A stretch of 64,000 nt of DNA from Dehalococcoidia bacterium (GTDB taxonomy: Bacteria; Chloroflexota; Dehalococcoidia; Lucifugimonadales; UBA3495), in contig DAOULB010000054.1 of NCBI GenBank assembly GCA_034420695.1, positions 78,207 through 142,206 of the forward strand. Reading direction: 5' to 3'. The notes beneath the pieces are model-generated. The model was not told the DNA's origin. It saw nothing but the letters and a program-made list of their open reading frames with translations, and made no database searches. Numbering within the stretch: the first letter of the stretch is position 1; each line of letters begins with the position of its first letter. Shown piece by piece: positions 3,375 to 55,758 of this stretch. A program made the position numbers and the translations under genes.

Positions 3375-3403
3375 ATTTTAGCCGTGGGCAATAGTGGTGT
3401 CAA
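3375..3403 (-). promoter_or_regulatory. sigma-70-like promoter TTGACA-N17-TAAAAT for the LLM gene
   Basis: Minus strand reads TTGACA ccactattgcccacggc TAAAAT. The ~90-nt leader contains the hairpin CCCCAAG..CTTGGGG (3337..3358). Confidence 0.4.
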
Positions 3404-20417: not shown

Positions 20418-22403
20418 TTGAACTGTTCCAATTGCGGGGAAGAAATTCCCCAAGGCTCCAACTTCTGCCAGTATTGCGGCGGAGCCTTGGCTGGTGCGCC
20501 GGTTGCTGGTAGCGGCGGCTCATCTCTCGATGCTGAGACGGCTGGCGATGCTGAACCGGTAGCCCTGCGGGAAACTGTCCTGGGACTCCAGGCCGAAGTT
20601 GCCGAATTATCCCGGCGTTTGCGGGCACTGGAGAGCGTCCGGCCTGTCCCCGGCTCTGCTCCGGCGCCTGCCCGGCCTGTTGCGCCGCCCCCAACGGTAG
20701 CGCAATCCGCCGCCCCCAGGGCGGACGCTCCACCGTCCGGCGCCGCTTCCGCCCCGCCGGACGCTCCCGCGGGCGGCGGACCTCCCGGAAACCTGCCGGG
20801 CATACTGTCACCCAGCGAATGGGAGTGGCTGCTGGGGGGCAACTGGCTGGCCCGGGTCGGTATCCTGGCCTTGATCTTCGGCATTGGGTTCTTCCTCAAG
20901 CTGGCATTCGACAACGACTGGATAGGCGAGACTGGACGGGTGGTTCTGGGACTGGCGGTGGGTGTGGCCCTGCTGGGCGGCGGGGAGTATTGGAGCCGGC
21001 GCTACCCCGCGTGGGCCCAAGCGGTCACCGGCGGCGGCATAGCAGTCCTATACCTTTCCATCTTCGCCGCCTTCGCCCTCTATGACTTGGTGCCTTCCCT
21101 GGGGGCCTTGGGCTTCTCATTCCTGGTGACCCTGGCCGCGGCCGGGCTGGCCTTGCGCTACGAGTCCCGTGCCATTGCCGTGCTGGGCATTCTTGGCGGG
21201 TTTGCTACTCCGCTGATCCTGGCCGATCGGCTGCCGGAGCAGTGGGCCTTGCTGGCCTACGTCCTGGTGCTGGACCTGGGAGTGCTGGCGCTGGCTACCT
21301 TCCGGAACTGGCGCTGGTTCACTTTGCTGGCCCTGATCGGGTCGCTGGTTCTCTTCGGATTCTGGTACTTTGAACTGGAGCCTGGCCTGCTGCTGGCCCA
21401 AGTGGGCATCACCGTTATTTTCCTGATTTTTGTCGGGGCCACCACCCTGTTCCACCTGCTCTGGCGGCGGCCCCCGGGGCCGCTGGACCAAGCCCTGATG
21501 GTCTTGAATGCGGCGGCCTACTTCGGGATAAGCTATGCCCTGCTCTTCGAAGAGTTCAGGGTCTGGATGGGCGGCTTCACCCTGCTGCTCGCCCTGTTCT
21601 ACGGCCTGCTGGGATACGGGATTGTGGCGCGGCACCGGGAACAGGCGCACCTGGGCCTGTTTGCCTTGGGCATTGCCTTGGTGTTCCTGACCATCGCTGT
21701 GCCAGTCCAGTTGGGCGGGCCCTGGATTGGCGTAGCCTGGGCCGTCGAGGGCGTGGTGCTAATCTGGCTGTCCTTCTTCGTGGGCATGCCCCAGTTGCGC
21801 TGGTTCGGCCTCGCCGCCTTCGTCATCACCATCGGCTACTTGCTGCTGCTGGACCTTCCCCTCGACTTGGGTGAGTCCGGCCCCTTCGTCGCCTACGAGT
21901 ACTCCTACTGGCCTGTAATCAACCTTCGATTCCTCTCCTACGTTCTCATAATCGCAGCATCGTATGCATCGGCCTTCGCTTGGTGGCGCTGGCGGGACAA
22001 TTACGTCTCCCCCGAGGAGCGGCACTTCATACCTGTCTTCCTGGGGGTGGCTAATGCCTTGTCCCTCTGGATACTGAGCATCCAGGTTGTTATGGCGGTT
22101 GACCAAGCCGCCATTGAACCAAACATCGCCGGCAACGTTATAAGCTTGTCCCTGAGCGGGCTATGGGCCCTGTACGCTGCCGTATTGATCGTTCTGGGCA
22201 TCGTCCGCCGCTTCCGCTTGTTGCGCTTGAGCGGGTTGGGCTTGCTGGCCGTTCCCATAGCCAAGCTGTTCGTCTATGACGCGTTCAACTTGGAGCAGGA
22301 ATATCGGGTGGCGGCCTTCATCGGGTTGGGCGTCCTCCTGGTGGTCGGGGGATTCCTGTACCAACGCTACAGCAGGGTCATCCGGGAGTTCCTGCTTGAG
22401 TAA
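20418..22403 (+). CDS. zinc-ribbon + DUF2339-like polytopic membrane protein
   Basis: N-terminus NCSNCGEEIPQGSNFCQYCGG (zinc ribbon), a Pro/Ala-rich linker, then about 18 hydrophobic segments with the repeated W..R/GG pattern I associate with DUF2339. TTG start. Confidence 0.75.
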   Translation: MNCSNCGEEIPQGSNFCQYCGGALAGAPVAGSGGSSLDAETAGDAEPVALRETVLGLQAEVAELSRRLRALESVRPVPGSAPAPARPVAPPPTVAQSAAPRADAPPSGAASAPPDAPAGGGPPGNLPGILSPSEWEWLLGGNWLARVGILALIFGIGFFLKLAFDNDWIGETGRVVLGLAVGVALLGGGEYWSRRYPAWAQAVTGGGIAVLYLSIFAAFALYDLVPSLGALGFSFLVTLAAAGLALRYESRAIAVLGILGGFATPLILADRLPEQWALLAYVLVLDLGVLALATFRNWRWFTLLALIGSLVLFGFWYFELEPGLLLAQVGITVIFLIFVGATTLFHLLWRRPPGPLDQALMVLNAAAYFGISYALLFEEFRVWMGGFTLLLALFYGLLGYGIVARHREQAHLGLFALGIALVFLTIAVPVQLGGPWIGVAWAVEGVVLIWLSFFVGMPQLRWFGLAAFVITIGYLLLLDLPLDLGESGPFVAYEYSYWPVINLRFLSYVLIIAASYASAFAWWRWRDNYVSPEERHFIPVFLGVANALSLWILSIQVVMAVDQAAIEPNIAGNVISLSLSGLWALYAAVLIVLGIVRRFRLLRLSGLGLLAVPIAKLFVYDAFNLEQEYRVAAFIGLGVLLVVGGFLYQRYSRVIREFLLE

Positions 22404-22413
22404 CCGCAATGGG

Positions 22414-23754
22414 TTGGGCGGGCGGCCTTTCCGCAGGCGCCTCGGCGTGGTGGCTGCCGCATTGTTCCTTCTGCTGGCCGCCGGCGCCTTCTGGGGGTCG
22501 GCAACTCTCCCCACGGCCCGCGCAGACTTTGACCTGGCCCTTTGGCGCTTCTTCAAGGTAGTCACTGTACCTCCGGGAACGGCTGCCGGGGACTTGGCCG
22601 AGCTTGCCTTGGACCGGGAGGTGTTTCAAGAATCGTCCGGTGGTCAGGCGGATTTGCGGCTGCTGGCCGGGGGAGAAGAAGTCGCCTACCAGTTGGTTGT
22701 GGCAGAGGGCCGGGAGGAACGCCGTTCCGTTCCTGTCAAGGTGCGTGACCTGGGTTACGTCCCCGGCGAATATGCCGGCTTCATGGCTGACTTGGGCGAT
22801 GGTGGAAGCCTGCATAACGAAATGGAAATATTCACCAAGGGTAAGAACTTTCGCCGCAGCGTGGTCGTAGAAGCCGGCAGCGACGCCGAAACTTGGGCCG
22901 TGCTGGAAGAAGGTTCGGAAATCTACGACTTTTCGGTTGAAGAACAGGGCTTCAACGCACGAAATACCCGGGTCGGCTATCCGGAAAGTGCGGCCCGGTA
23001 CCTGAGGGTCCGGGTCTTGGACGGCGGCGCCGGCCCGCTGGGGATAGACGGCGCTGGCGTGGCTTTCTCTGAAGAAGTTCCGGCTGTTGAAATCCCCTAT
23101 GCGCCAAGGGTCTTGAGCAGCGGTGAGGGCGCCGGCGACCGCTCCAGTTTCTGGATATTGGACTTGGGTAATCGGGGCATCCCCGCCGGGCGCCTGTCCT
23201 TTCACACCACGGCCTCGAATTTTCACCGCACCGCCACTGTCGAAGGCAGTGATGACCGGGAAGACTGGCAGTTGCTGGGTAGCGGCCCCGTATATTCCTA
23301 CGATACTTCCAAGTTCACCGGCAGCAGCTTGTCACTGGACTTCCAGGAAGGTAGCTACCGGTACTATCGCTTCACCGTACAGGACTTGGATGACCCGTCC
23401 CTCCCGGCGGAGGGATTTACCCTGCATGGCTTGGAACGGAAGTTGATTTTCCAATCACAACCGGGTGTCGAATATTTTCTCTATTACGGAAATCCGGAGG
23501 CTCGTCAGCCATCCTACGATTTGGAACGAATAGTCCCCTACCTGGAGACCGGCAACCTGCCCGCCGCCTCGCTGGGAGTTCAACAGGCTAATCAGTCATT
23601 TACCGGCCCCGACGTGCCCCTGACCGAACGTTACCCTTGGTTGGCCCCCGTAGGCGTCGTTGTAGCGGCGCTGGCCGTGGGGGCGTTGCTGTTCGGCGTC
23701 TTCCGCCAAGCCCGCAAGTTGCTGCCCCCGCCGGACTCTGGCCCCGCAGGTTGA
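22414..23754 (+). CDS. DUF3999-like secreted/anchored protein
   Basis: TTG at 22414 gives the signal peptide RRRLGVVAAALFLLLAAGAFWG..ARA. Two beta-sandwich-like halves (YLRVRVLD / YYRFTVQD) and a C-terminal TM anchor. Starts 10 nt after the DUF2339 stop. Confidence 0.65.
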   Translation: MGGRPFRRRLGVVAAALFLLLAAGAFWGSATLPTARADFDLALWRFFKVVTVPPGTAAGDLAELALDREVFQESSGGQADLRLLAGGEEVAYQLVVAEGREERRSVPVKVRDLGYVPGEYAGFMADLGDGGSLHNEMEIFTKGKNFRRSVVVEAGSDAETWAVLEEGSEIYDFSVEEQGFNARNTRVGYPESAARYLRVRVLDGGAGPLGIDGAGVAFSEEVPAVEIPYAPRVLSSGEGAGDRSSFWILDLGNRGIPAGRLSFHTTASNFHRTATVEGSDDREDWQLLGSGPVYSYDTSKFTGSSLSLDFQEGSYRYYRFTVQDLDDPSLPAEGFTLHGLERKLIFQSQPGVEYFLYYGNPEARQPSYDLERIVPYLETGNLPAASLGVQQANQSFTGPDVPLTERYPWLAPVGVVVAALAVGALLFGVFRQARKLLPPPDSGPAG

Positions 23755-23857
23755 CCGCCCACGGGGGCAATGCTAAATTCGACCCCTGCCGGGTATTCAG
23801 TGCTACGGTTCCTCGGCAACCGGTGTAATAGCCAGCCGCTTAAAGGTGAGTTGAGCC

Positions 23858-24940
23858 ATGAAAGCTGCAGTATTGAGGGAAGTGGACCGCCCCCTGGAGG
23901 TCGAAGAGGTGCAGGTGGACAACCCCAGCCCCCGCGAGGTGCTCATCCGCACCGGGGCCACTGGCGTTTGCCACAGCGACCTCCATTTCGTCGAAGGCAA
24001 ATATGCGATAGCCATGCCGGCGGTGCTGGGCCACGAAGCCGCCGGCACCGTGGAGGCTGTGGGCAGCCAAGTCAACTACCTGAAGCCGGGGGACACGGTG
24101 ATAACCTGCCTGTCGGTGTTTTGCGGCCTCTGTGAGCGCTGCCTGAGCGGGCGGCCCAACCTTTGTTACCGGGAGGACGTGGTCCGGTCGCCGGACGAAC
24201 CGCCGAGATTGAGACAGGGGAGCCAGGCGGTAACCCAGATGGCTCAGCTCTCGTCCTTCGCCGAACAGATGCTGGTTCACGAGAACGCCACGGTTAAAGT
24301 CCGGGAAGATATCCCCTTCGAGCAACTGGCCCTCATCGGTTGTGGCGTGACCACCGGGGTCGGCGCTGCGCTGAACACCGCCAAGGTGCAACCGGGCAGC
24401 ACCGTTGCCGTCATCGGCTGCGGCGGCGTGGGCCTCAGCGCCATCCAGGGAGCGATCCTGGCCGGCGCGTTGCGGGTCATCGCCATCGACCGGGTGGAGA
24501 CCAAGTTGACCATGGCCACCCAGTTCGGGGCCACCGATGTGGTGGACGCCTCTTCCGGAGACGTGGTGGAGAAAATCCGGGACCTGACCAACGGCGGCGT
24601 GGACTATTCCTTCGAGGCCATCGGCACCAAGGAGACGGCTGAGCAGGCCTTCAACATGCTGCAGGCCGGGGGTACTGCCACCATAATCGGCATGATCCCC
24701 CAAGGCACCAAGATAGAGCTGGACGGGCCCTCATTTCTCCGGGAGCGGAAGATCCAGGGCAGCAGCATGGGTTCCAATAGGTTCCGCACCGACATGCCCC
24801 GGTTCATCGAGTTCTACTTGCAGGGCCGCCTGAAGCTGGACCAGATGGTCTCCCAGAGGCTGAGCCTGGGCGACGTCAACGGCGCCTTCGAAGACATGAA
24901 GGCCGGCGCCGTCGCCCGCAGCGTGATCACTTTCGGCTAG
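23858..24940 (+). CDS. zinc-dependent alcohol dehydrogenase family oxidoreductase
   Basis: GVCHSDLH, GHEAAG.V, structural-zinc Cys cluster CGLCERCLSGRPNLC, and GCGGVGLS Rossmann motif. Confidence 0.9.
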   Translation: MKAAVLREVDRPLEVEEVQVDNPSPREVLIRTGATGVCHSDLHFVEGKYAIAMPAVLGHEAAGTVEAVGSQVNYLKPGDTVITCLSVFCGLCERCLSGRPNLCYREDVVRSPDEPPRLRQGSQAVTQMAQLSSFAEQMLVHENATVKVREDIPFEQLALIGCGVTTGVGAALNTAKVQPGSTVAVIGCGGVGLSAIQGAILAGALRVIAIDRVETKLTMATQFGATDVVDASSGDVVEKIRDLTNGGVDYSFEAIGTKETAEQAFNMLQAGGTATIIGMIPQGTKIELDGPSFLRERKIQGSSMGSNRFRTDMPRFIEFYLQGRLKLDQMVSQRLSLGDVNGAFEDMKAGAVARSVITFG

Positions 24941-25010
24941 TGCCAACTGGTTGAAAGAATCTATTTGTTGCTGTTAAGGTTGCTACAGCAGACAAAGCAC
25001 TGGGCGGGAC

Positions 25011-25394
25011 ATGCAGGCACGGGAGTCCACAGCTGAAAAACACACACGGCTCGCTCATAAATTGCTGGCCGACGCCGAGGGGGAGATAGCCGCCGGGGAC
25101 TTGGTTCAAGGGGCAGAGAAGCTATGGGGTGCTACTAGCCAAGCCCTAAAGGCCTACAGCGCAAGCCGTGGCCTGCCCCATAGTAAATATGCCCAACGCC
25201 GTAGAGCCGTGATGGACCTAGCAGCCCGGCAGGATGACTCCTTCATACGCGCTGCCTTCGGCGTTGCCCAGTCATGCCACTCCAATTTCTACAACGATTG
25301 GATGGAGCAGGAAGACTTGGATAGCTACCTGCCGGACATACGTCAACTGGTCGACTTAGTCCTCAGTGCCAAGGAGCCACCTGCTTCCTGCTGA
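25011..25394 (+). CDS. hypothetical helical protein, PaREP1-like
   Basis: LLADAEGEIAAGDLVQGAEKLWGATSQALKAY resembles the archaeal PaREP1/PaREP8 helical family as I recall it. Weak call. Confidence 0.45.
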   Translation: MQARESTAEKHTRLAHKLLADAEGEIAAGDLVQGAEKLWGATSQALKAYSASRGLPHSKYAQRRRAVMDLAARQDDSFIRAAFGVAQSCHSNFYNDWMEQEDLDSYLPDIRQLVDLVLSAKEPPASC

Positions 25395-25462
25395 TGCTCT
25401 CCCTCATGCAGGTTCCGGCTCCAGGTTCCCGGATGGTCAAGCATGCCTGAGGACCGGCCCCG

Positions 25463-26236
25463 TCAGTTCTTCCAGTGGGGCTCCCGCTTCTCCAGGAAGG
25501 CGGTGATGCCTTCTTGGGCGTCCTCTTCCATAAGGTTGTCCACCATCACCTGCTGTGCCATCTGGTAGGCCGCCGGGCGGTCCATTTCAATTTGTTGATA
25601 GAAGGCGGGCTTCCCCAAGGCCAGGGTGCGGGAACTGGCCTTGGCTATGCGCCGGGCCAATTCCATCACTTCTTCTTCCAGCTTATCCGGGGCCGTAACT
25701 CGGCTGATCAAGCCGAACTCCAGGGCCTCGGTGGCCGGGATTGGGGCGCCGGTTAGCAGCATTTCCATGGCCTTCTTGGGCATCACCGCCCGGGCAACCG
25801 CGACCCCGGGAGTGGTGCAGAACAACCCGATCTGGACGCCGGGAGTGGCGAACCTGGCGGTGTCGGCAGCCACCGACAGGTCGCAGGTGGCCACCAGTTG
25901 GCATCCCGCAGCGGTGGCTAATCCCTGCACTTGGGCGATGACCGGCTTTGACAGCAGGCGGATTAGTTCCATGACCTCGGTGCAGTCGGCGAACACTCCC
26001 GAATAGCTCTCCCTGTCTTGGCCCACCAACTCGTTCAGGTCGTGCCCTGAACTGAACACCGGCCCGGTGGAACGAATGACGACGACGCGAACGCTGGCAT
26101 CTTTCCCGGCTTCGGTCAGGTACCGGTGAAGCAGTTCCAGAGTCGGCGTGGACAGCGTGTTGCGCTGTTTCGGATTGTTAAGTGTCAACACCGCTATCCC
26201 TTCTTCTAGGTGGTACAGTACCGGGTCTTCCGACAT
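25463..26236 (-). CDS. enoyl-CoA hydratase/isomerase (crotonase) family protein
   Basis: Crotonase fold motifs ([35 protein letters not shown]). AAGGAGG SD. Confidence 0.9.
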
Positions 26237-26330
26237 GATATTGCCTCCTTGGTCTTACGAGTCGCAGGCTGGGGACGGCCTAAAAGGCTGACCGGCAGCT
26301 CCATCCCATGGTCTAGCAATTAGGCTTCGG

Positions 26331-27209
26331 TTACTCTTTTACGACATCCCTGAATTGTCGAATGATTTCGAGCCGTTCTTCCAGAGAACGCAGGCCAGCT
26401 TTACGGGTCTCCACCACCAAGTGAGTGGCCCCCAGTTCCTCCCACTGCTTCGCCTCTCCCAACCAGTCCTCCGGCTGCTTGCCGGCGGTCCAGATGCGAC
26501 CTTCCAACTCAAGGCTGGACGGATTCCGCCCCGCTTCTTTCATGTAGTCCCTGACGGTCTGGACCAACTCCCGTCCTTTTTGGTCCGGGCCGAATCCGGG
26601 GCACCATCCGTCGGCAATGGCCGCAACCCGGTGCAGAACGGACTTGGTGCCCAATGACCCTCCTCCCAGCCACACGGGAATGGGCCGCTGCACCGGCAAG
26701 GGATTCAGACCCGCGTTGTCCACCCGGTGCCACCTCCCATGGAAGTCAACCACTTCATCGGTCCACAGGGCCCGCATCAGGGCGATCTGCTCTTCGCTGC
26801 GTCTGCCCCGGTTGTGAAAATCTTGGTTGAGCGCCTGGTACTCCACGTCGTTCCAGCCAACCCCGATGCCCAGCCGTAACCTGCCGCCGCTGAGCACGTC
26901 CACCTCCGCAGCCTGCTTTGCCACCAAGACCGTCTGGCGTTGGGGCAGTATGAGGATTCCCGACGCCAGCCCTACCGTGGTGGTCACGGCAGCCAGATAG
27001 CCCATGGTGGTCATGATTTCGTGGACTACGCTTTGGTGGTGGTAAGTCTGCAGGGAGGGGTGGCTGTGGTGCTTGGGGTCCGCGCCCAGAACATGGTCCG
27101 CAACGAAAATGTGATCATACCCTAAGCCTTCGACCGCCTGGGCGAAATCCTTGATTTCCGAAGGGTCCGGCCCTATCTCGGTCTGAGGGAAAATGGCGCC
27201 TATCTTCAA
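26331..27209 (-). CDS. LLM-class F420/flavin-dependent oxidoreductase
   Basis: MKIGAIFPQ, LGYDHIFVADHV, RLGIGVGW and IPVWLGG motifs. TTG start. Confidence 0.85.
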   Translation of the reverse strand: MKIGAIFPQTEIGPDPSEIKDFAQAVEGLGYDHIFVADHVLGADPKHHSHPSLQTYHHQSVVHEIMTTMGYLAAVTTTVGLASGILILPQRQTVLVAKQAAEVDVLSGGRLRLGIGVGWNDVEYQALNQDFHNRGRRSEEQIALMRALWTDEVVDFHGRWHRVDNAGLNPLPVQRPIPVWLGGGSLGTKSVLHRVAAIADGWCPGFGPDQKGRELVQTVRDYMKEAGRNPSSLELEGRIWTAGKQPEDWLGEAKQWEELGATHLVVETRKAGLRSLEERLEIIRQFRDVVKE

Positions 27210-27250
27210 TTGGGAACAACCTTTCCTACTTGCTGCGGCGTGGTGATTTC

Positions 27251-28129
27251 CTAACCTACCTTGCGGTACTTTAGCAGGCGCTGTCCTTCAAGGTTCTGGT
27301 TGATGTACAGGTCGCCCCGGGAGTCCAACCAGATGGCGTGGGCTCCGGCGTCGGCAGGTCCTAGCCACCGGGCCAGGACTTCCCCCTCAATGGACACTAC
27401 GCTCATGAAGGCGTCCAGTTCCGGGATGAACAGCACCTCGTCCTGGTCAATGTAGATGTCGCAGGGGCGTGAGAAGCCCCTCCACTCGGTCAGGAAGTTG
27501 CCGTCGGGGTCGAAAATCTGGATCCGGTTGTTTTCCCGGTCGGCCACGAAGACCCGCCTGTCGGTATGCACCCACACGCCGTGGGGCACGTGGAACTCTC
27601 CCTGTTCGGTCTTTCCAGGTTCACCCCATGAAAAGAGCAACTCCCCCCCGGCGGTGAACTTGTGCACCCTGGCATTGCCGTAGCCGTCGGAGATGTACAT
27701 GTCGCCCTCAGGAGTAAGGGCGACATCGGTGGGACGGTTAAAGGGGCCGGCGGCCCGCTGCACTGTGTCCGAAATATTGCCGGACCAACCGGTGTCAGAG
27801 GGCTGGTCCCTGGTGCCCAGGGTCATCAGCAGGTTGCCTTGAGAATCGTATTTGAGCACCACGTGATTGTTCTTGACCGGCAGATATATGTTGTCGTCAG
27901 AGTCGATGTACATGCCGTGGGCGTCGGTCAGGACGCCTTCTCCCCAGGAAGTGAGAAAGTGCCCCTCGCGATCCAGGACAATCAGCGGATGGTCGCTGCG
28001 GTTGAAGAGGTACACTCGGTCAAGGGAGTCGGTGACTATGGCGGTCTGGCCCAACTCCCATCCTTCGGGTAGGGAGCCCCAACCCTCCACGATTTCGTAG
28101 GTGTATTTTCCGGAACCAACTGTAGCCAT
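27251..28129 (-). CDS. NHL-repeat six-bladed beta-propeller protein (peptidyl-alpha-hydroxyglycine lyase-like)
   Basis: Repeated blades (HGMYIDSDDNIYL, PTDVALTPEGDMYISDGY, HGVWVHTDRRVFVADRENNRIQIFD). The ATG at 28129 has an AGGAGGG SD. The track start 28174 is less likely. Confidence 0.8.
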   Translation of the reverse strand: MATVGSGKYTYEIVEGWGSLPEGWELGQTAIVTDSLDRVYLFNRSDHPLIVLDREGHFLTSWGEGVLTDAHGMYIDSDDNIYLPVKNNHVVLKYDSQGNLLMTLGTRDQPSDTGWSGNISDTVQRAAGPFNRPTDVALTPEGDMYISDGYGNARVHKFTAGGELLFSWGEPGKTEQGEFHVPHGVWVHTDRRVFVADRENNRIQIFDPDGNFLTEWRGFSRPCDIYIDQDEVLFIPELDAFMSVVSIEGEVLARWLGPADAGAHAIWLDSRGDLYINQNLEGQRLLKYRKVG

Positions 28130-28185
28130 GGCTTCCCTCCTGGAACCGGATTGGTTGGACGCGCCTGCCTGCAACTGGCGCCGGA

Positions 28186-28761
28186 CTAGCTGCTTCTGGT
28201 AAGGGCCTCAACTACTTCGTCGACGATCGACTTCGCCCTCTCTTGGACTGCCTCGGGAGTCAGACCGCCCAACGGATGGGGGATGCCGATGGGTTGAAAC
28301 CCCTCGCGCTTGAAGGTCCGGGCGTGGATGTGAGCCGAGTTGAGAAAGGGGTTGGTGCAGATGACCACCGTGGGAATGCCCCGGTTTTCCAAAGTCATGG
28401 CGTCGTGCACACTGCACGACGTGCAGGACCCTCAATCTGCGATGGCTGTTACTACGAAGTCGCACCGGTCTGCCAAGGACTCGATGATATCCGGGGCTGC
28501 AGGCCGGGAATAGATGTACTTGTCAACGGCAATGCCTTCACCCAGTTCCAACCTCTGGCACATGAGGTCCTTCACCGCCTCCAGCAACAGCCCGGAGTTG
28601 GCCTTCTTGTTGCCGAGGAAGCCTCCTGTCTTGCCCTCCAGCCTGTTCAACCGGGGAGCGGCGTTCCAGCGGCTGGACGCCTCCGGGTCCACCGGGCTCC
28701 GAATATCCAGAACCTTCAGCCGCTCTTCCAGGGTGCGGGCTGGACTTGTGGCGATTACCAT
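28186..28761 (-). CDS. candidate selenoprotein with U-G-S-C motif (191 aa, Sec at codon 110; UGA at 28434..28432)
   Basis: Track ORFs 28432..28761 and 28186..28410 share one frame and are separated by a single TGA. Read-through gives ..VVTAIAD-U-GSCTSCSVHDAM... There is no independent SD for the second half. A SECIS-like hairpin lies downstream. Confidence 0.65.
28401..28421 (-). promoter_or_regulatory. SECIS-like stem-loop downstream of the in-frame UGA
   Basis: The mRNA reads CGUCGUGCA-GUG-UGCACGACG, a perfect 9-bp stem beginning 11 nt after the UGA. The apical G/U lie about 20-24 nt from the UGA. Confidence 0.5.
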
Positions 28762-28785
28762 TGCGCTTCTCCCATTGTAACTCCC

Positions 28786-29823
28786 TCAGGGAAATTCAAT
28801 CTTGCGGATAGCCCGGCGTGACCCCCAGCCGGGCACGTACACCGAGTGGGGCCCGCCGGCGCCTCCGGCTACGAACACGTGGATATCGTCGGGGCGTCGG
28901 ACCACCGGGACCATTTCCTCATCCCGGTTCGGGTCCACGAACTTGGGCCACAGCATCTCCCGCCGGTCGTCCCCTTGGGCGGGGCCGCCGCGCCGCAACA
29001 GGGACACTGGCTTGCGGGCGTGCTCGAACAGGAACTGCTTGACGTCCGCCTTCCGCCATCCGTCGGCGGCCAGCATTCGAGCGTGCTCCGGGCCCAGGAA
29101 CACCAGGGTGTCGCCCATCACGTACATCTGGACGTTGCCCAATGGGCACATCGTGTCGGCCAGCACCGTCAGGAAGTTCCTGGGGTTCACAGCGTGGTAC
29201 ATGATGTTGTGGGGGGCCTCTCCCGGAAACACCGTGACCGTGCTGTCTTCCGTGGAAAACCCTGACTCGACGTGGTAGGGGGCCCAGGGGTTGGCGTCCT
29301 CGTTCTCCGCTACGCAGTAAGTGTAGGCCCCAGGGTGGCCGAAGGTCGCCTTGTTGGTCTCTCCCGGTGTCGCTCCACCCAAGTTCACCAGCGCCAGCTT
29401 GACCGCCCTTCCGATTGTGGCATTGGCCCGCCAGCCCTGACCGAAGCAGTTGTAGCCGGAGTTGATACTAAGCTCCCTTACGATGGGTCCATTGACGATT
29501 ACCAGGGGCGAGTGGATGCCGGTGGAGCACTGGACGCCCCGAAGATTGAACCGGTCGTCCATCAAGGCCTGGATGGCAGTGACGACCACCGGCATGTATT
29601 CCGGAAGGCAACCGGCCATGACCGCGTTGACGGCAATGCGTTCGACGGTGGCGCGGCCCCCCAAAGGCGGTATTTCGGCTATTAGCTCGTCTACCGCTCG
29701 GCCGCTGGCAGCCGCCATTGCTTCCACCAAGTCGCCCGTGGGCGGCACCACCGGCAACCCGTCGGTCCAACCGGTCTGGTACATCAACTCAACGGTTTCG
29801 GAAATCACCGGGGAAAGGGTCAT
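28786..29823 (-). CDS. conserved-looking protein of unknown function (345 aa)
   Basis: The ATG at 29823 (MTLSPVISETVELMYQTGWTDGLPVVPPT) has an AGGAGAAGA SD. The track start 29925 is unlikely. No family recognised. Tightly linked to the selenoprotein gene (24-nt gap). Confidence 0.7.
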   Translation of the reverse strand: MTLSPVISETVELMYQTGWTDGLPVVPPTGDLVEAMAAASGRAVDELIAEIPPLGGRATVERIAVNAVMAGCLPEYMPVVVTAIQALMDDRFNLRGVQCSTGIHSPLVIVNGPIVRELSINSGYNCFGQGWRANATIGRAVKLALVNLGGATPGETNKATFGHPGAYTYCVAENEDANPWAPYHVESGFSTEDSTVTVFPGEAPHNIMYHAVNPRNFLTVLADTMCPLGNVQMYVMGDTLVFLGPEHARMLAADGWRKADVKQFLFEHARKPVSLLRRGGPAQGDDRREMLWPKFVDPNRDEEMVPVVRRPDDIHVFVAGGAGGPHSVYVPGWGSRRAIRKIEFP

Positions 29824-29858
29824 TCTTCTCCTATGGAAACCATTACTCGGTGGCTGGC

Positions 29859-31097
29859 CTAGTCCGCGGGAACGGCGGTCTCCACCCTGCCCTTGAAGGC
29901 CGGCATCACGTCCTTGGCAAACCACTCTAGTTGTTCCAGGATGACTTTCTGGGGAGTACCCATCGGGTGACCTACCTCGATCCTCTCCAATCCTGGGTAG
30001 TTTTCCTCCACTCCTTTCAGTTGTTCGATCACCCGCTCCGGCGGCCCCACGAGGAAGGCGCCCTGCTTGACGGCGGCCTCCATGGTGGGAAGGTCGGCGA
30101 AAGGGGCCCGGGCCGGGTCGGCGATGTCCAGCATCTGCTGTTCCGACAGACCCCGGTGCAGGCGCAGGGGGCCGAACATTTTCACGTTCTCCTCGTAATA
30201 GGCCGATGCTGCCTTGACGGCCTCTTCCGGACTGTCCGCCAAATAGAAGTGGAAGCCGACGCTAAGGTCGCCACCCAGTTCCGTCTCCCTTCCGTGGCGG
30301 GCTAAGGCAGCCCGGTAGTTGACCATGACGTCGTCCATCACGCCGCCTTCGGCAACCCCGCCACCGATAATCCCCTTGATGCCATGCCTCGCCATGAAGT
30401 CCAAGGCCCGCTGGGTGCCGCCTTGAATGGGTTGCCAGCACTCCACCGGCAGGTGTTTGGGCCGCGGGACCAGTGTAAGGTCCTTCAACTGGTAACCCCG
30501 GTAAGGAATGTCGGGGGGAAGGTCGTAATATTTGCCGTGGTGGGAGAAAGACGGCTCGTTAAACGCCTTGAAAATAACCTCCACCTGCTCTTCGAACATC
30601 TCCCTGTTGGCGTCCTGGTCCAGCAGGGGAGCCCCGAAGGTCTCAACCTCCCTGGTGTGATAGCCCCGGCCCACGCCGAACACCACCCGCCCGTCGGTGA
30701 GAACGTCGGCGGTGGCAAAGTCTTCCGCCAGCCTGAGGGGGTGCCACATGGGAGCGATGTTGAAAGCGCATCCCAGCCTGATGTTCTTGGTCAGGTGGGC
30801 AAGGTGGACGTTGAACAGGAGGAGATTGGGGATGCACTCGTAGCCTTCCGGCTGGAAGTGGTGCTCGGCTTGCCAGAGGGTGTCGAAGCCCAGCTTGTCC
30901 GCCAGAATGCCGATGGCCTCCGCCTTGCTGAAGGCAGTCGAAAGATGGTCATTGTCGTAGATTCGGTCGTTGACCGGTGTGCCGGCGTAACCCACGTTGT
31001 CCATGTCAACGTGGCCTGCAAAAAGGGTATCGAATTTGGTAATCAAAACGACCCTCCCTTTATCAAAAACAGTTGGGACCGCCTGCGTGGCCTCCAT
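29859..31097 (-). CDS. LLM-class (luciferase-like) flavin-dependent monooxygenase, ~400 aa type
   Basis: LGFDTLWQAEHHF, RLGCAFNI and VFGVGRGY motifs. The true start may be the TTG at 31046 (GGGAGG SD), because a consensus promoter overlaps the ATG at 31097. Confidence 0.85.
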   Translation of the reverse strand: MEATQAVPTVFDKGRVVLITKFDTLFAGHVDMDNVGYAGTPVNDRIYDNDHLSTAFSKAEAIGILADKLGFDTLWQAEHHFQPEGYECIPNLLLFNVHLAHLTKNIRLGCAFNIAPMWHPLRLAEDFATADVLTDGRVVFGVGRGYHTREVETFGAPLLDQDANREMFEEQVEVIFKAFNEPSFSHHGKYYDLPPDIPYRGYQLKDLTLVPRPKHLPVECWQPIQGGTQRALDFMARHGIKGIIGGGVAEGGVMDDVMVNYRAALARHGRETELGGDLSVGFHFYLADSPEEAVKAASAYYEENVKMFGPLRLHRGLSEQQMLDIADPARAPFADLPTMEAAVKQGAFLVGPPERVIEQLKGVEENYPGLERIEVGHPMGTPQKVILEQLEWFAKDVMPAFKGRVETAVPAD

Positions 31098-31123
31098 TGT
31101 AGGGGGCGGTATATTGGTGTCAA
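31096..31123 (-). promoter_or_regulatory. sigma-70-like promoter TTGACA-N16-TACAAT for the LLM/selenoprotein operon
   Basis: Minus strand reads TTGACA ccaatataccgccccc TACAAT. The -10 hexamer overlaps the track ATG at 31097. Confidence 0.4.
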
Positions 31124-31267
31124 CCCTGGCGGAGCGCGTAAGTAAGGTGACGCGAGTCCAGACTGGAAAGGGGCAAATTTCACTCTTCTCGTCCCGTGTT
31201 ATACTCGCTGGGGCAGGCTCGGCCGGTTACAGGCCGGCGGCTAACCAGTGAGTTGAGAGGAACACTT

Positions 31268-32023
31268 ATGGCGGACCAGCTTCAGGGTAAAGTGGCCGTG
31301 GTAACCGGGTCGGGCCGGAACATCGGCCGGGCAACAGTTCTGAAACTGGCCGGCGAAGGGGCCAACGTGGTTGTGAACGCGCGAGGCAACCAGGAGCAGG
31401 TTGAATCGGTGGCCCGGGAAGCCCGGGAACTGGGCGTGGAGGCTCTGGCTGTCCTGGCCGATGTTTCCGACCGCGAGCAGGTCAACAGCATGATGGGCCA
31501 GGCCATGGATCACTTCGGCAAGGTGGACATCCTGATAAGCAATGCCGCCATCCGTCCCCACAAACCCTTCATGGAATTGACCTTGGAGGACTGGGAACGG
31601 GTTCGGGGAGTGGTGCTGGACGGGGCCTTCGACTGCGCCCACGCCGTGATTCCCTCAATGGTGGAAAACCAGTTCGGCCGGATAGTCTTTTTGTCCGGGG
31701 GCGGGGCTTGGGCCGGCACCGCCGAGCGTTCCCACGTTTCAGCGGCCAAGATGGGGCTGGTTGGATTCTCCAGGGGCTTGGCTTCGGAGTTTGCCCCTCA
31801 CAACATCAGGGTCAACGTCGTCGCTCCCGGCAGCATCAACACCAGCCGGGAGAACCCCCAGTGGTATCCCCAGAGCCGCACTCCCGGTACCTCGGGAATT
31901 CCCATGGGCCGCCAGGGAGACGTGAACGAAATCGCCTCGGCCATCCTGTTCATGGTCACCGATGACGGAGGTTTCGTTACCGGTCAGACCCTCCACGTGA
32001 ACGGGGGCGCCGCTTACTTCTGA
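31268..32023 (+). CDS. SDR-family oxidoreductase
   Basis: KVAVVTGSGRNIGRA (TGxxxxIG) and NAA motifs, plus a catalytic S...Y-type region (SAAKMGL). I prefer the ATG at 31268 over the track start 31196. Confidence 0.9.
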   Translation: MADQLQGKVAVVTGSGRNIGRATVLKLAGEGANVVVNARGNQEQVESVAREARELGVEALAVLADVSDREQVNSMMGQAMDHFGKVDILISNAAIRPHKPFMELTLEDWERVRGVVLDGAFDCAHAVIPSMVENQFGRIVFLSGGGAWAGTAERSHVSAAKMGLVGFSRGLASEFAPHNIRVNVVAPGSINTSRENPQWYPQSRTPGTSGIPMGRQGDVNEIASAILFMVTDDGGFVTGQTLHVNGGAAYF

Positions 32024-32038
32024 CGCTTGGTTGTTAAC

Positions 32039-32716
32039 CTAGCTCCGCAGCCGCACCTCCCGGATGTCCTCGGGGACAATCAATTTCGCTTCGGTCAGTT
32101 CCTGGATTTCCTCGGGTGTCCAGCCGGGGGCGTGCTCCCGAAGGACAAATCCCTCTCCCGTAACCTCGAAGAACCCTAGGTCGGTGGAGACCATCTTCAC
32201 AACCCCCGGCGCAGTAATCGGCAGCTTGCACTTCTTGAGTAGCCGGGGTGAGCCGTCCCTGGGATTGCAGTGTTCCATGGCGATGAACACCCGCTTGGCG
32301 CAGGCCGCCAAGTCCATGGCCCCGCCGATGCCGCCGCCCTTCCGGTTGGGCAGCCGCCAATTGGCAAAGTCCCCGTTTTCGGCAACTTCGTAGGCTCCCA
32401 GTACCGTCACGTCCACCATCCCGCCCCGGATGATGCCGAAGGAATCGGCGTGGTGGACGATGGCCATCCCCGGCAGGCTGGTCACGTACTGGCCTCCGGC
32501 GTTCACCAAGTGCCTGTCTTCTTCTCCTTCCGGGGCCAAGGGACCGTAGCCAATGACGCCGTTCTCCGACTGGTTGATTATCTCCCGGCTGGGGTCAACG
32601 TAATTGGAGCACAGGGTCGGGATGCCAATCCCCAGGTTTACAACCCATCCGTCTTGGAACTCCATGGCCAGCCGGTCGCACATAGCCTGCCGGTCCAACC
32701 TTGCTTTCTCCGCCAT
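32039..32716 (-). CDS. scoB: 3-oxoacid CoA-transferase subunit B
   Basis: DGWVVNLGIGIPT and SENG (catalytic Glu) motifs, plus GGAMDL. Confidence 0.9.
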   Translation of the reverse strand: MAEKARLDRQAMCDRLAMEFQDGWVVNLGIGIPTLCSNYVDPSREIINQSENGVIGYGPLAPEGEEDRHLVNAGGQYVTSLPGMAIVHHADSFGIIRGGMVDVTVLGAYEVAENGDFANWRLPNRKGGGIGGAMDLAACAKRVFIAMEHCNPRDGSPRLLKKCKLPITAPGVVKMVSTDLGFFEVTGEGFVLREHAPGWTPEEIQELTEAKLIVPEDIREVRLRS

Positions 32717-32832
32717 TGGGCACCCTCCGGAACGTTGCTATCAAGTTCGAATTGGAACAGTCTGAATTGGAAATAGTGAGCGAAAGGGGTTGTCCTGACG
32801 GGCGCTGCCTGCCGTCCTTCCATGCTGTGGGC

Positions 32833-33531
32833 CTAGTCCTGGATTCCATCCTCCGGAATCCGCACCACCCGGTTTACGTAGATGCCTGGAACGTGGATGT
32901 GGTCCGGGTCAATGCCACCTATGGGCACGATGTCATTTTCTACTTCCACTATGGTCGTGGTGGCGGCCATGGCCATCACGGGGTTGAAGTTGCGTTGGGT
33001 CAACCGGAACTGGAGATTGCCAAAGGTGTCGGCCTTCCAAGCCCGGATGAAAGCGTAGTCGGTGCGAAGGGGGTGCTCCAGAACGTAGGTGCGGCCGTCT
33101 ATCACACGGTGCTCCTTACCTTCCGCCAGTTCGGTGCCCACGCTGGTGGGGGTGAAGAACCCCCCAATTCCGAAAGCGGCGGCCCGCAACCGTTCAACCA
33201 ATGTCCCTTGGGGCACGGTCTCAGCCTCAATCTCGTCGTCGTTGTACATACGCACGAAGTCTGTAATGCGGGACGGGTGCGTGGCGGCGGTAAAGGCGCA
33301 GATCATCTTCCTGAACCGTCCCGCTCCTACCAGCAACCCCACGTCCACCCGGTCGTCCAATGCCCCGGCGTTGTTGGATATTCCCACCATATCCTTGGCT
33401 CCCTGGCGGTGCAGGGCTGCTATGAGGTTGCGGGGAAAGCCGACGTTGCCGAAGCCGGCGAAGGCTACGGTGCAACCGTCGGGAATGTCGGCCACCGCCT
33501 CGTCGAAGGTGGCGAAGACCTTGTTCTGCAT
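32833..33531 (-). CDS. scoA: 3-oxoacid CoA-transferase subunit A
   Basis: KVFATFDEAVADIPDGCTVAFAGFG and PQGTLVERLRAA motifs. Confidence 0.9.
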   Translation of the reverse strand: MQNKVFATFDEAVADIPDGCTVAFAGFGNVGFPRNLIAALHRQGAKDMVGISNNAGALDDRVDVGLLVGAGRFRKMICAFTAATHPSRITDFVRMYNDDEIEAETVPQGTLVERLRAAAFGIGGFFTPTSVGTELAEGKEHRVIDGRTYVLEHPLRTDYAFIRAWKADTFGNLQFRLTQRNFNPVMAMAATTTIVEVENDIVPIGGIDPDHIHVPGIYVNRVVRIPEDGIQD

Positions 33532-33725
33532 CTTCCGATTCTCCCAAGGGTGCCAAGTCTGTATGTTGCCTCCATACTACCCCACCGCGGCATGGGTTGC
33601 CAGTTACGCCAGGCCTGCAACCCTTGACAAGGCTTTGGAATGGTCGAACAATCCTTTACACACAAGGAATGCAGGCCAGTGTTACAGGCCAGAATGCCCG
33701 GTTATCCTTCCGGCAGGAGCGACCA

Positions 33726-34802
33726 ATGGGTGATAATGGACACAAGACCTACGTGTATGTGGGACTGGGTGGCGAGAGCCCTTTGTTGGTGGGCTCTGAA
33801 GGCCCACCGCTGGACCAGGGCGGGCTTTACCGCCGTGGGGACGGCGATGAGACTTGGGACGAAAAGACCTGTGGCCTTCCGTCTCATCCCCAAGTGAGGG
33901 CCTTGTTGGTCGACCCCCGGGACCCTGCATCAATCTTCGCCGGCACCCAGGACGGAGTCTATCGCAGCAACGACCGCGGAGAAAACTGGGAAAGGCAGGA
34001 CTCACCCCGGGGAGACGTGTGGTCCCTTGCGGCCCACCCCCATGACCCTGAAGTGATGTTTGCCGGGTATGACCGGGGCACAGTTTGTCGCTCCCGGGAC
34101 GGCGGGTCTTCCTGGCAGAAGATGAACACCGCCGACGTCATATACCCCCACATCACCATGCATCCCAACGAAATCGTCAAACGTGTCATTGGAATAGCCG
34201 TTGACCCGGGAAACCCCGATGACGTTTACGGGGCCGTTGAGGTGGGTGGGCTGGTTGCCAGCAGGGACGGGGGCGAAAACTGGGTGTCGGCCACCGACGG
34301 GCACTATACCAGCACCGGCCCGGTGGACCTGCACGGGGTGCAGGTCAGTCCATCGGCCCCGGGCTTGGTTTACATCATCACCCAGCTTGCTATGTTTCGC
34401 AGCCGGCAGCGGGGCCGCCACTGGGAGTTGGTGGCCCTGAAGCAGATGTTCCCCGGAGGAAGTTACTGCCGCGGCCTGATTGTGGCTCCCGACGACCCGG
34501 CCACTATGTACTTGGCCGCCGGAGCCGGGGGCGGTGCAGCCCCTGCGGGAACCGAGCAGGCCGGGGCGTTGTTCCGCACCGTGGATAGCGGCGAGACTTG
34601 GGAAGAAATGGACATAGGAGCGGTCCCGGACAGCCGGATGTTCCAAATCGCCATCGACCCCGCCCTGCCCTCGCACCTGTACTGCTGCACCAGGGACGGC
34701 CTCGTCTGCAGCAGCTACGACCGGGGCGATACCTGGAGCCGCAGCCAGATCCCGGTGGAAATGTCCCGCACCAATCACGTCTATCCCATGGTTTGCGGAT
34801 AG
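33726..34802 (+). CDS. BNR/Asp-box repeat beta-propeller protein
   Basis: At least five S/T-x-D-x-G-x-x-W boxes (SNDRGENW, SRDGGSSW, SRDGGENW, VDSGETW, YDRGDTW). The ATG at 33726 has an AGGAG SD. Confidence 0.75.
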   Translation: MGDNGHKTYVYVGLGGESPLLVGSEGPPLDQGGLYRRGDGDETWDEKTCGLPSHPQVRALLVDPRDPASIFAGTQDGVYRSNDRGENWERQDSPRGDVWSLAAHPHDPEVMFAGYDRGTVCRSRDGGSSWQKMNTADVIYPHITMHPNEIVKRVIGIAVDPGNPDDVYGAVEVGGLVASRDGGENWVSATDGHYTSTGPVDLHGVQVSPSAPGLVYIITQLAMFRSRQRGRHWELVALKQMFPGGSYCRGLIVAPDDPATMYLAAGAGGGAAPAGTEQAGALFRTVDSGETWEEMDIGAVPDSRMFQIAIDPALPSHLYCCTRDGLVCSSYDRGDTWSRSQIPVEMSRTNHVYPMVCG

Positions 34803-34848
34803 TAATCGACCGGGATGGGGCGCTCCGCCCTTCCCAAAATCGGAGGAA

Positions 34849-35475
34849 TTGGACACTGCTATGGCAATGGAACGGGCTACCTTTGGCGTTGACGAGAACT
34901 CCTTGGAGTTCATGGTGTTGGAGAAAAGTGAATTGCCCCCGGAATTTGCCGGACACCAGCTTGTTCGGGAGGGGCCCTTGGACAATGCCACCATGGCCCG
35001 CCAAGGATTTCCCGGGAACACGGCAAAGAAATTCATTGACGCCGGCCGGGTCGGCGGATACCTGCGGGAGTTCGGACCCACCAGCAACATGGGCGCCGAG
35101 GACGGGTTCGACATGCTGGGGGCCACCGTCGCCCATCTCTTCGACTCACCGGAGTCGGTGCCCCGCTGGATGAACGATATTTTCATCAAGGACTTCGAAG
35201 ACAACGTTGGAGAGAAGGTGGGTGACGACCATCAACTGGTGTCGGTCACCCACTTGGAACCCCAGGGCTTTTACGACGAAGCGGTAGCCCTCAAGGTAGT
35301 GCAGGGAGGCGCCCAAGGGCTGGTGTCCTCCACCGTCATCGACTTCCGGGTCGGCCGCCTGCTGGGCGTAGCCTTCGTAGCCACCATCGGTGACCACACC
35401 CGCCTGGAGCTGACCACCCAACTGGGCTTGGCCCTGGAAAGGCGCATGGTGCGGGTGATTCTGGGGTCTGGGTAG
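34849..35475 (+). CDS. hypothetical protein (208 aa)
   Basis: Long ORF with host-like G+C composition. No family recognised and no signal peptide seen. Confidence 0.5.
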   Translation: MDTAMAMERATFGVDENSLEFMVLEKSELPPEFAGHQLVREGPLDNATMARQGFPGNTAKKFIDAGRVGGYLREFGPTSNMGAEDGFDMLGATVAHLFDSPESVPRWMNDIFIKDFEDNVGEKVGDDHQLVSVTHLEPQGFYDEAVALKVVQGGAQGLVSSTVIDFRVGRLLGVAFVATIGDHTRLELTTQLGLALERRMVRVILGSG

Positions 35476-42712: not shown

Positions 42713-42741
42713 TTGACACTCAGGCTCGCCATATATACAAT
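42713..42741 (+). promoter_or_regulatory. sigma-70-like promoter TTGACA-N17-TACAAT
   Basis: TTGACA ctcaggctcgccatata TACAAT, about 30 nt upstream of the small zinc-ribbon ORF. Confidence 0.5.
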
Positions 42742-55730: not shown

Positions 55731-55758
55731 TTGACACCTATTCTATCTGGGGTATAAT
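55731..55758 (+). promoter_or_regulatory. sigma-70-like promoter TTGACA-N16-TATAAT for SBP gene 1
   Basis: TTGACA cctattctatctgggg TATAAT. About a 190-nt leader to the ATG at 55950. Confidence 0.5.

Follow-up and report, generated by a model that had tools for sequence, protein, structure and literature searches.

A conserved pair of the UGSC selenoprotein and a 345-residue partner, possibly a selenol-based reductase, within a lineage-specific gene cluster of Dehalococcoidia

Which of the six genes lying in a row on the minus strand of a Dehalococcoidia contig work together, and what might the selenoprotein among them do? The genes occupy positions 25463-31123 of the stretch of 64,000 nucleotides analyzed here (the window), which comes from contig DAOULB010000054.1 of assembly GCA_034420695.1 (Bacteria; Chloroflexota; Dehalococcoidia). 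Read along the minus strand, they encode a luciferase-like monooxygenase (LLM1), a 345-aa protein of an unannotated family (UNK345), a selenoprotein of the UGSC family (UGSC), an NHL-repeat beta-propeller (NHL), a second LLM-class enzyme (LLM2), and an enoyl-CoA hydratase (crotonase). A preliminary description of this DNA had read the six as a self-contained catabolic module. We find that UNK345 and UGSC are the only two cluster genes linked across bacteria and are predicted, from this linkage, to be a conserved functional unit. We propose, with roughly even confidence, that the two constitute a two-component, thiol-recycled, selenol-based reductase that was recruited into a lineage-specific catabolic operon.

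The UGSC gene (28186-28761, minus strand) encodes a protein of 191 aa with selenocysteine at position 110 (Sec110), specified by an in-frame UGA at 28432-28434 within the motif D-U-G-S-C-T-S-C. With Sec entered as Cys in the profile calculations, the protein scores above the curated cut-offs of both NF041046 (135.2 bits against 125) and PF24696 (151.6 bits against 25). The Sec codon position is TGA in 71 of 74 UGSC homologues, which were taken from related loci and belong to many phyla, and encodes Cys in the other three (L053 from Mycobacterium gordonae, together with L054 and L070, a set that includes an Actinomycetota metagenome-assembled genome (MAG) and Candidimonas nitroreducens). Protein conservation extends past the UGA. 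A hairpin of 9 bp with a GUG loop, resembling a selenocysteine insertion sequence (SECIS), begins 10 nt after the UGA (28401-28421, minus strand; positions 14-34 counted from the U of UGA) and is kept in the homologues. Among 61 distinct sequences, loop residues G23 and U24 are invariant, and the pair 21-27 is C-G in 48, G-C in 13, and unpaired in none, the change from a Cys codon (TGC) to a Trp codon (TGG) being accompanied by a G to C exchange at the synonymous third position of the pairing Val codon. The covariation score of the hairpin is 0.169, compared to 0.073 in shuffles; none of 500 shuffles reached this value, and every slid register scored lower.

This comparative evidence identifies the in-frame UGA as a true selenocysteine codon, in agreement with the presence of a genuine selenoprotein in the cluster that the preliminary description had claimed. 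The opposite reading, that the TGA is a real stop or a pseudogene lesion and that no selenoprotein is made, would agree with the public gene calls, which give two open reading frames (ORFs) of 109 and 70 aa, and with the result that Sec-tRNA and sel genes were not found in the window. It is already contradicted by the data, namely by TGA at the same codon in nearly all homologues across many phyla, with Cys in the few others, by the conservation beyond it, by the compensatory synonymous changes in the hairpin, and by a read-through product that exceeds the NF041046 cut-off, and we regard it as extremely improbable. The split is seen in the public gene calls (L081, 10001-10576), and nearly all database entries of the UGSC family are cut short there, with a length of about 107 aa. 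Mis-annotation is thus systematic in this family, and the splitting or truncation of the selenoprotein at UGA hides the system from routine genome analysis.

Residues U110-G-S-C113-T-S-C116 follow a U-x-x-C-x-x-C spacing, with Trp instead of the third Cys in many homologues. Part of the family also lacks the +3 Cys: the sequence is H-U-G-S-S-T-(S/P)-W in the Sec-containing subgroup formed by L036, L038, L045, L060, L067, and L072, and C-G-T-S-T-S in many of the fused Cys forms. The alignments therefore indicate that the +3 Cys behind the family name is not universal, and that the invariant residue is the Sec/Cys alone.

The linkage of UGSC to UNK345 was examined in a scan with the UNK345 profile, using one genome per species, in which at least 600 matches were listed and from which the best 80 loci were kept. 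In the 20 closest loci, all from Dehalococcoidia or Chloroflexota MAGs, the anchor is 73-80% identical to UNK345; the other 60 belong to Methylomirabilota/Rokubacteria, Binatia, Poribacteria, Nitrospinota, Alpha- and Betaproteobacteria, Actinomycetota, and others. In 69 of these 80 best loci, a hidden Markov model (HMM) search allowing read-through of TGA located a UGSC gene no more than 600 nt from UNK345 and on its strand; both gene orders are found. The co-conservation of all six genes, whose absence the preliminary description had named as grounds for refuting its reading, did not hold, as only this pair is linked in distant genomes.

The two proteins are also found as single chains. Among the 71 long UNK345 representatives listed (>400 aa), 42 contain a UGSC domain, at either the N- or the C-terminus. 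Full-length Cys-form UNK345-UGSC fusions of 520-580 aa are numerous, and one of them is named "UGSC family (seleno)protein" by NCBI. UGSC and UNK345 of the window are collinear with the fusion P0402 (33% and 47% identity, respectively), in which Cys95 corresponds to Sec110 and Cys262 to Cys72 of UNK345. The cysteine equivalent to Sec and that of the NAVMAGC motif of UNK345 are invariant in a set of 43 fusions, in which the +3 Cys is often Ser. Further redox domains occur in the long representatives: one contains a complete thioredoxin reductase (P0301, 695 aa; TIGR01292, 331 bits), two contain the catalytic-chain domain of ferredoxin-thioredoxin reductase (FTR), which in P0298 matches the NCBIfam FtrB family, and two contain Redoxin/AhpC-TSA domains. 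The P0298 chain itself consists of the C-terminal part of UGSC, UNK345, and a domain matching the NCBIfam entry 'FtrB family double-selenoprotein'.

UNK345 (28786-29823, minus strand) belongs to a family of 7,067 clusters at 50% identity (E<=1e-3), with conserved GWTDGLPxxPP, NAVMAGC (containing Cys72), NGP, GxRANATIGRA, and AENE motifs. Pfam and NCBIfam scans, run with the single sequence to E = 1 or 10 and with all 20 members of the alignment, returned no match, and neither did a profile search of the PDB sequences. The idea that Cys72 is lost where the UGSC neighbor is absent was rejected, such copies retaining it. By analogy with PrdA and GrdE, Gly71-Cys72 might be a self-processing, pyruvoyl-forming site, which we leave as an idea: the AlphaFold2 (AF2) model of UNK345 alone (predicted local distance difference test, pLDDT, 77; predicted template modeling score, pTM, 0.83) places Cys72 in a short loop just ahead of helix 74-87, a position that fits a nucleophilic or redox cysteine better than self-processing.

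AF2 models the P0402 fusion confidently as one body (pLDDT 89.9, pTM 0.91). Its UGSC half is built of five beta-alpha units with a flavodoxin/Rossmann-type resemblance, and the Sec-equivalent Cys sits at the junction between strand 87-93 and helix 96-111; an alpha/beta arrangement of this kind is at odds with the thioredoxin-like fold that had been guessed in 2008. A Foldseek search of this model against the PDB gave no match at E<=0.001. The matches that were returned are generic alpha/beta domains (receiver-like, Rossmann-like, and MccF N-terminal) over about 120-220 aligned columns, with a few longer ones at a root-mean-square deviation (rmsd) of about 19 A, and judged by their size and fold they must correspond to the UGSC half. 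For the UNK345 model, Foldseek similarities to class I fumarate hydratase (E 4e-4, TM 0.22-0.29, rmsd 16-19 A) and, in the PDB, to Toblerone-fold amidohydrolases or selenophosphate synthetase were set aside as too weak. As modeled, UNK345 is without a detectable structural relative in the PDB.

The other four genes of the cluster show a much narrower distribution. With an ortholog threshold of at least 50% identity, and counting in the same 80 loci, the number of the 20 close Dehalococcoidia loci with an ortholog is 12 for LLM1, 18 for NHL, and 8 each for LLM2 and crotonase; the other 60 loci contain none. The neighborhood comparison thus argues against a self-contained six-gene module, the orthologs of these four genes being confined to the close relatives. 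There, the NHL gene follows UGSC in 18 of 20 cases, LLM1 is absent in 8 of 20, and genes for major facilitator superfamily (MFS) transporters lie upstream. A typical relative has the order MFS, LLM, LLM, UNK345, UGSC, NHL, a further LLM, a small unknown gene, and an FMN-dependent dehydrogenase, followed by small genes, LLM2, and crotonase. At least one extra LLM gene stands between NHL and LLM2 in the close relatives, and most of them also have the FMN-dependent dehydrogenase and small unknown genes in this interval, so that LLM2 is 2.7-7.2 kb from the anchor, compared to 1.6 kb in the window. Compared with these relatives, the window thus carries a condensed form of a cluster that is lineage-specific and variable. 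As only two of the six genes are linked across bacteria, caution is warranted against reading the operon as a pathway.

Outside the close clade, the neighbors of the pair vary by lineage. They include LysR and amidase genes with TctC; asparaginase; CoA-transferase III; acyl-CoA ligase; two CoA-transferase III genes with crotonase; aconitase and PrpD-like proteins with a citrate-type transporter; hydantoinase; an MpaB-type oxygenase; thiolase-like and ChsH2-type proteins; and GntR regulators. Crotonase was found within 2.5 kb in 3 of these 60 loci, and an LLM2-type gene in none. All neighborhoods were judged by tblastn and HMM searches with defined queries, together with public gene calls; two neighborhood clusterings based on a home-made ORF caller were discarded because of antisense shadow ORFs in GC-rich DNA. 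A locus of 21 kb in a Betaproteobacteria MAG (L040, JACQGN010000246.1) contains three UNK345 and four Sec-containing UGSC paralogs among TctC and amidase genes, which suggests that the family diversified by substrate. In two cultured strains, M. gordonae DSM 44160 (L053) and C. nitroreducens SC-089 (L070), a CoA-transferase III gene lies directly downstream of a Cys-form pair, and in the former a divergent LysR regulator gene is present as well; these strains are possible genetic models for the function of the pair.

The Sec region of UGSC gave weak matches to GrdF, GrdB, and PrdB (E 1.7e-6 to 4e-4), over residues 73-140 to 93-188 depending on the GrdB/PrdB model, which indicates a distant relationship between UGSC and protein B of the glycine and proline reductases in the Sec region. 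A U-x-x-C-x-x-C spacing is characteristic of GrdB. Membership of UGSC in the GrdB/PrdB family itself was rejected: for the set TIGR01917, TIGR01918, NF040794, and TIGR04483, scores and cut-offs in bits are 26.9/602.2, 22.5/65.45, 26.9/800, and 19.9/300, a pyruvoyl partner is lacking, and so are the genes for GrdA, GrdC, and GrdD. A Pfam scan of UGSC at E<=0.01 returned PF24696 only and no GRDB model, and none of the genes at 20418-35204 encodes a GrdE/PrdA pyruvoyl-type protein, GrdA, GrdC, or GrdD.

These features can be combined into a candidate mechanism. The small alpha/beta domain of UGSC would present the selenocysteine at the start of a helix, and UNK345, probably the substrate-binding subunit and an obligate partner of UGSC, would hold a small organic substrate for attack by the selenol. 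The resulting intermediate could then be resolved by Cys113 of the U-G-S-C motif or by Cys72 of the partner, giving a selenenyl-sulfide that thioredoxin or a thioredoxin-reductase-type system would reduce again. The net result would be a two-electron reductase resembling selenoprotein B of the glycine and D-proline reductases, working without a pyruvoyl partner. In the present Dehalococcoidia genome, possibly one of the SAR202 type, the cassette lies in a predicted operon that also encodes two luciferase-like flavin or F420 oxidoreductases, the NHL protein, and the crotonase, a variable catabolic set of this lineage rather than a conserved pathway. Reductase activity, cysteine roles, and electron donor are all inferred, and a selenol-based reductase fits the location of Sec at a helix N-terminus, the homology to the Sec region of GrdB and PrdB, the obligate larger partner, and the occasional fusions to thioredoxin-system reductases. 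The transporters, regulators, amide hydrolases, and CoA-activating enzymes near the pair, and the L040 paralogs, suggest that the substrates are small organic acids or amides, which may differ between subfamilies.

A more specific version, in which the pair cleaves a C-X bond reductively as GrdB and PrdB do, is only a tentative suggestion. We are similarly doubtful about the most extended version, a widespread two-component selenoenzyme with a new catalytic fold, which would use thioredoxin to drive the reductive cleavage of C-N, C-S, C-O, or C-halogen bonds in small carboxylates or amides, with substrate-specialized paralogs and, in Dehalococcoidia, a connection to LLM-mediated oxidation. If this were true, the pair would be a counterpart of the Stickland-type glycine and proline reductases outside amino-acid-fermenting anaerobes.

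Several observations weigh against the reductase proposal. No member of the UGSC or UNK345 families has a known substrate or activity, and reviews list UGSC as uncharacterized. UGSC is missing from the vicinity of UNK345 in 11 of the 80 best loci, and the UNK345 copies there still keep Cys72. The absence of the +3 Cys in the U-G-S-S subgroup and in the fused C-G-T-S-T-S forms makes the resolving cysteine uncertain. Fusions to thioredoxin reductase, FTR, or redoxin domains are rare (5 of the 71 long representatives). The similarity to protein B covers about 65-95 residues and remains far below the family cut-offs; the pair lacks a pyruvoyl-protein partner, UNK345 not being a GrdE/PrdA proprotein. 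The genomic context gives no firm substrate clue either: in the loci beyond the close clade, where counts are small, crotonase, CoA-transferase III, amidase, TctC, short-chain dehydrogenase/reductase (SDR), LLM, and LysR genes were not clearly enriched in the proximity of the pair.

The arrangement of the cluster in the window bears on how far the six genes can be read together. Gaps of 35, 24, 56, 41, and 94 nt separate the genes, taking TTG 31046 as the start of LLM1 and ATG 28129 as that of NHL, and each gene has a Shine-Dalgarno sequence 5-11 nt upstream of its start. A sigma-70-type promoter (TTGACA-16 nt-TACAAT; 31096-31123, minus strand) precedes LLM1, with 11 of 12 consensus positions, and is the sole match in an 8-kb region; four promoters of the class TTGACA-N16-18-TANAAT are present in the window, where chance would predict 0.01. 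No convincing internal terminator was found: on the minus strand, the cluster contains a single, weak terminator-like site, located inside the crotonase gene, and the whole region contains three such sites against 7.4 expected. The gene coordinates, the gaps, the consensus promoter, and the lack of a convincing terminator between the genes all agree with the preliminary description, and the common strand, short gaps, and single strong upstream promoter support an operon-like organization and a predicted transcription unit.

It is on this arrangement that one could see the six genes as a single self-contained, oxidative, CoA-dependent pathway, in which the selenoprotein, the LLM enzymes, an NHL/PAL-like lyase, and the crotonase act on one substrate. 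NHL after UGSC in most close relatives and the recurrence of LLM1, LLM2, and crotonase in 8-12 of the 20 would agree with this, as would the finding that a few unrelated lineages (L036, L045, L083, L087, and L089) have crotonase genes and genes for CoA-transferase or acyl-CoA ligase close to the pair. Nevertheless, common descent alone can produce synteny at 73-80% anchor identity, the close relatives carry inserted LLM, FMN-dehydrogenase, and small genes, with MFS genes upstream and LLM1 missing in some, and a third LLM gene lies elsewhere in the window. As the four other genes have no ortholog in the 60 loci outside the close clade, where crotonase is rarely close and an LLM2-type gene never, we consider a six-gene pathway rather unlikely.

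Two other readings concern the chemistry of the pair itself. The U-x-x-C motif, the rare fusions to Redoxin/AhpC-TSA, thioredoxin-like, thioredoxin reductase, and FTR-like domains, and the placement of UGSC among thioredoxin-like redox proteins in selenoproteome surveys would suit a general antioxidant or thiol-disulfide system, peroxidase-like or reducing protein disulfides, with no catabolic role. Such a function is unlikely in our view, given that the UGSC half of the fusion model has a five-fold beta-alpha, flavodoxin/Rossmann-type architecture rather than a thioredoxin fold, that a 345-aa partner with a highly conserved, pocket-like set of motifs is needed, that the +3 Cys is dispensable in many members, and that the pair adjoins LysR/GntR regulators, transporters, and hydrolases, with several paralogs in one locus. 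The other reading makes the pair a redox-neutral isomerase, racemase, lyase, or hydrolase, with the Sec/Cys and Cys72 as a nucleophile or an acid-base pair; it would explain two conserved Cys/Sec residues on two domains and why several loci have an amidase, asparaginase, or hydantoinase gene right beside the pair, and it recalls the weak Foldseek matches to class I fumarate hydratase and to Toblerone-fold cyclic amide hydrolases. These structural matches have TM scores of 0.16-0.29 and large rmsd values, the fusions to thioredoxin reductase and FTR-like domains imply an oxidized form that needs to be reduced again, and Sec is strongly retained (71 of 74 homologues), as is usual for redox catalysis; we consider redox-neutral chemistry quite improbable. 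The near-constant pairing with UNK345 moves UGSC from a "redox protein of unknown function" to a testable two-subunit enzyme with Sec110, Cys113, and Cys72 as candidate residues, and it supplies a candidate electron donor and a defined complex.

Regarding the other cluster members, LLM1 (29859-31046, minus strand) is a luciferase-like, flavin-dependent monooxygenase or oxidoreductase (PF00296, 160 bits) whose closest PDB sequence relatives are luciferase alpha chains; it falls below every NCBIfam subfamily cut-off and is a generic Bac_luciferase member. It had been given as a 400-aa LLM, of which the family assignment stands and the length probably does not: the mechanical ORF of 412 aa (31097 to 29859) starts at ATG 31097, which is an unlikely start because the -10 hexamer overlaps it. 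Translation most likely begins at TTG 31046, preceded by a GGGAGG ribosome-binding site, for a product of 395 aa. The public gene call, made independently on this scaffold (ENA ERZ23495130, scaffold_333, 154.6 kb) lists proteins of 395, 345, 109+70 (UGSC split at the UGA), 292, 292, and 257 aa. The NHL protein (27251-28129, minus strand; 292 aa from ATG 28129, ribosome-binding site AGGAGG) matches PF01436, and its best PDB sequence relatives are the NHL domains of TRIM71 and Thin (E 1e-35 to 1e-31). The preliminary description had called it an NHL/PAL-like propeller; the NHL repeats are confirmed, and the match to the PAL domain of PAM (3fvz; E 1.8e-20, residues 49-215) is weaker than those to the non-catalytic NHL domains of TRIM71 and Thin. 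LLM2 (26331-27209, minus strand, 292 aa) is a predicted F420-dependent LLM-class oxidoreductase of the Rv2161c type, scoring 267.1 bits against the curated TIGR03619 cut-off of 166.9, and the crotonase (25463-26236, minus strand, 257 aa) scores 349 bits against a cut-off of 313 for PRK08139 and 197.5 bits for ECH_1, so that both earlier annotations, an F420-type LLM and an enoyl-CoA hydratase, are supported by curated cut-offs.

Next to the promoter, an SDR gene (31196-32023, plus strand; the public call starts 24 codons further in and gives 251 aa) is divergent from the cluster, and its ortholog lies 6.5-9 kb upstream in 5 of the 20 close relatives. The two genes for subunits of a family-I CoA-transferase (32039-32716 and 32833-33531) had been described as divergent together with the SDR; this applies to the SDR only, the CoA-transferase genes being on the minus strand and convergent with it. 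On the far side of the cluster are a gene for a Zn-dependent alcohol dehydrogenase and, directly beyond the 3' end of the operon, a 127-aa ORF (25011-25394, plus strand) of the archaeal PaREP1/PaREP8 family (PF05942, E 1.3e-14), found here in a Dehalococcoidia genome. Overlapping ORFs at 20418-23754 (plus strand) encode a 661-aa membrane protein of the DUF2339 type, which has a zinc ribbon at its N-terminus, and a DUF3999 protein of 492 aa according to the ORF list and 452 aa according to the public call. The three other near-consensus promoters of the TTGACA-N16-18-TANAAT class are located at 3375-3403 (minus strand), 42713-42741 (plus strand), and 55731-55758 (plus strand), the first of them just upstream of the third LLM gene (about 2368-3267, minus strand; 31% identity to LLM2). 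A tRNA-Lys(ttt) of 93 nt called by ARAGORN at 56724-56816 (plus strand) scores below the gathering score of the Rfam tRNA model, and we suspect a false positive.

The UGSC family itself has been known since the 2000s and is not new. UGSC-containing proteins have been catalogued in marine selenoproteome surveys and are still uncharacterized (PMC2398784, PMC9312934, PMC13188914). A fusion of UGSC to a domain called 'Unknown_1' was reported in 2008 (PMC2398784), and this domain is probably UNK345. The Global Ocean Sampling (GOS) table gives the PrdB motif as UxxC. In a full-text literature search, UGSC-containing proteins were mentioned solely in surveys and reviews and were not linked to SAR202, to Dehalococcoidia, or to a function; the earlier remark that no described pathway matches the six-gene set is in line with this. 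What is added here is the UNK345 partner family with its size of about 7,000 clusters, its near-obligatory adjacency to UGSC, the frequency of fusions, the fusions to redox enzymes, and the alpha/beta fold predicted for UGSC.

Placed among known systems, the protein of the window is a member of the NF041046/PF24696 UGSC family by its cut-off scores, its U-G-S-C motif, the UGA/Cys position, and the SECIS hairpin. The pair resembles GrdB, GrdF, and PrdB in having Sec within a U-x-x-C(-x-x-C) motif, a second, larger subunit, and presumably a thiol or thioredoxin reductant, but its hosts, judging from their taxonomic labels, would be mostly aquatic and soil lineages rather than amino-acid-fermenting bacteria of the Clostridia type. 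With thioredoxin-dependent Cys/Sec reductases such as the methionine sulfoxide reductases, ArsC, and the peroxiredoxins, it shares a nucleophilic Sec/Cys where a helix begins, a Cys that probably acts in resolution, and fusions to proteins of the thioredoxin system; it differs from them in being a two-subunit system with a 345-aa partner and in showing no detected kinship of sequence or fold. In SAR202-type Dehalococcoidia, catabolic clusters contain many genes for luciferase-like monooxygenases, CoA-transferases, SDRs, and MFS transporters. To our knowledge, no cluster of this type with a selenoprotein pair inside it has been described, and a full-text search combining SAR202 and selenocysteine returned nothing relevant. 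The window and its 20 relatives resemble these clusters in combining LLM paralogs, MFS transporters, FMN-dehydrogenase, SDR, CoA-transferase, and crotonase around the UNK345-UGSC pair.

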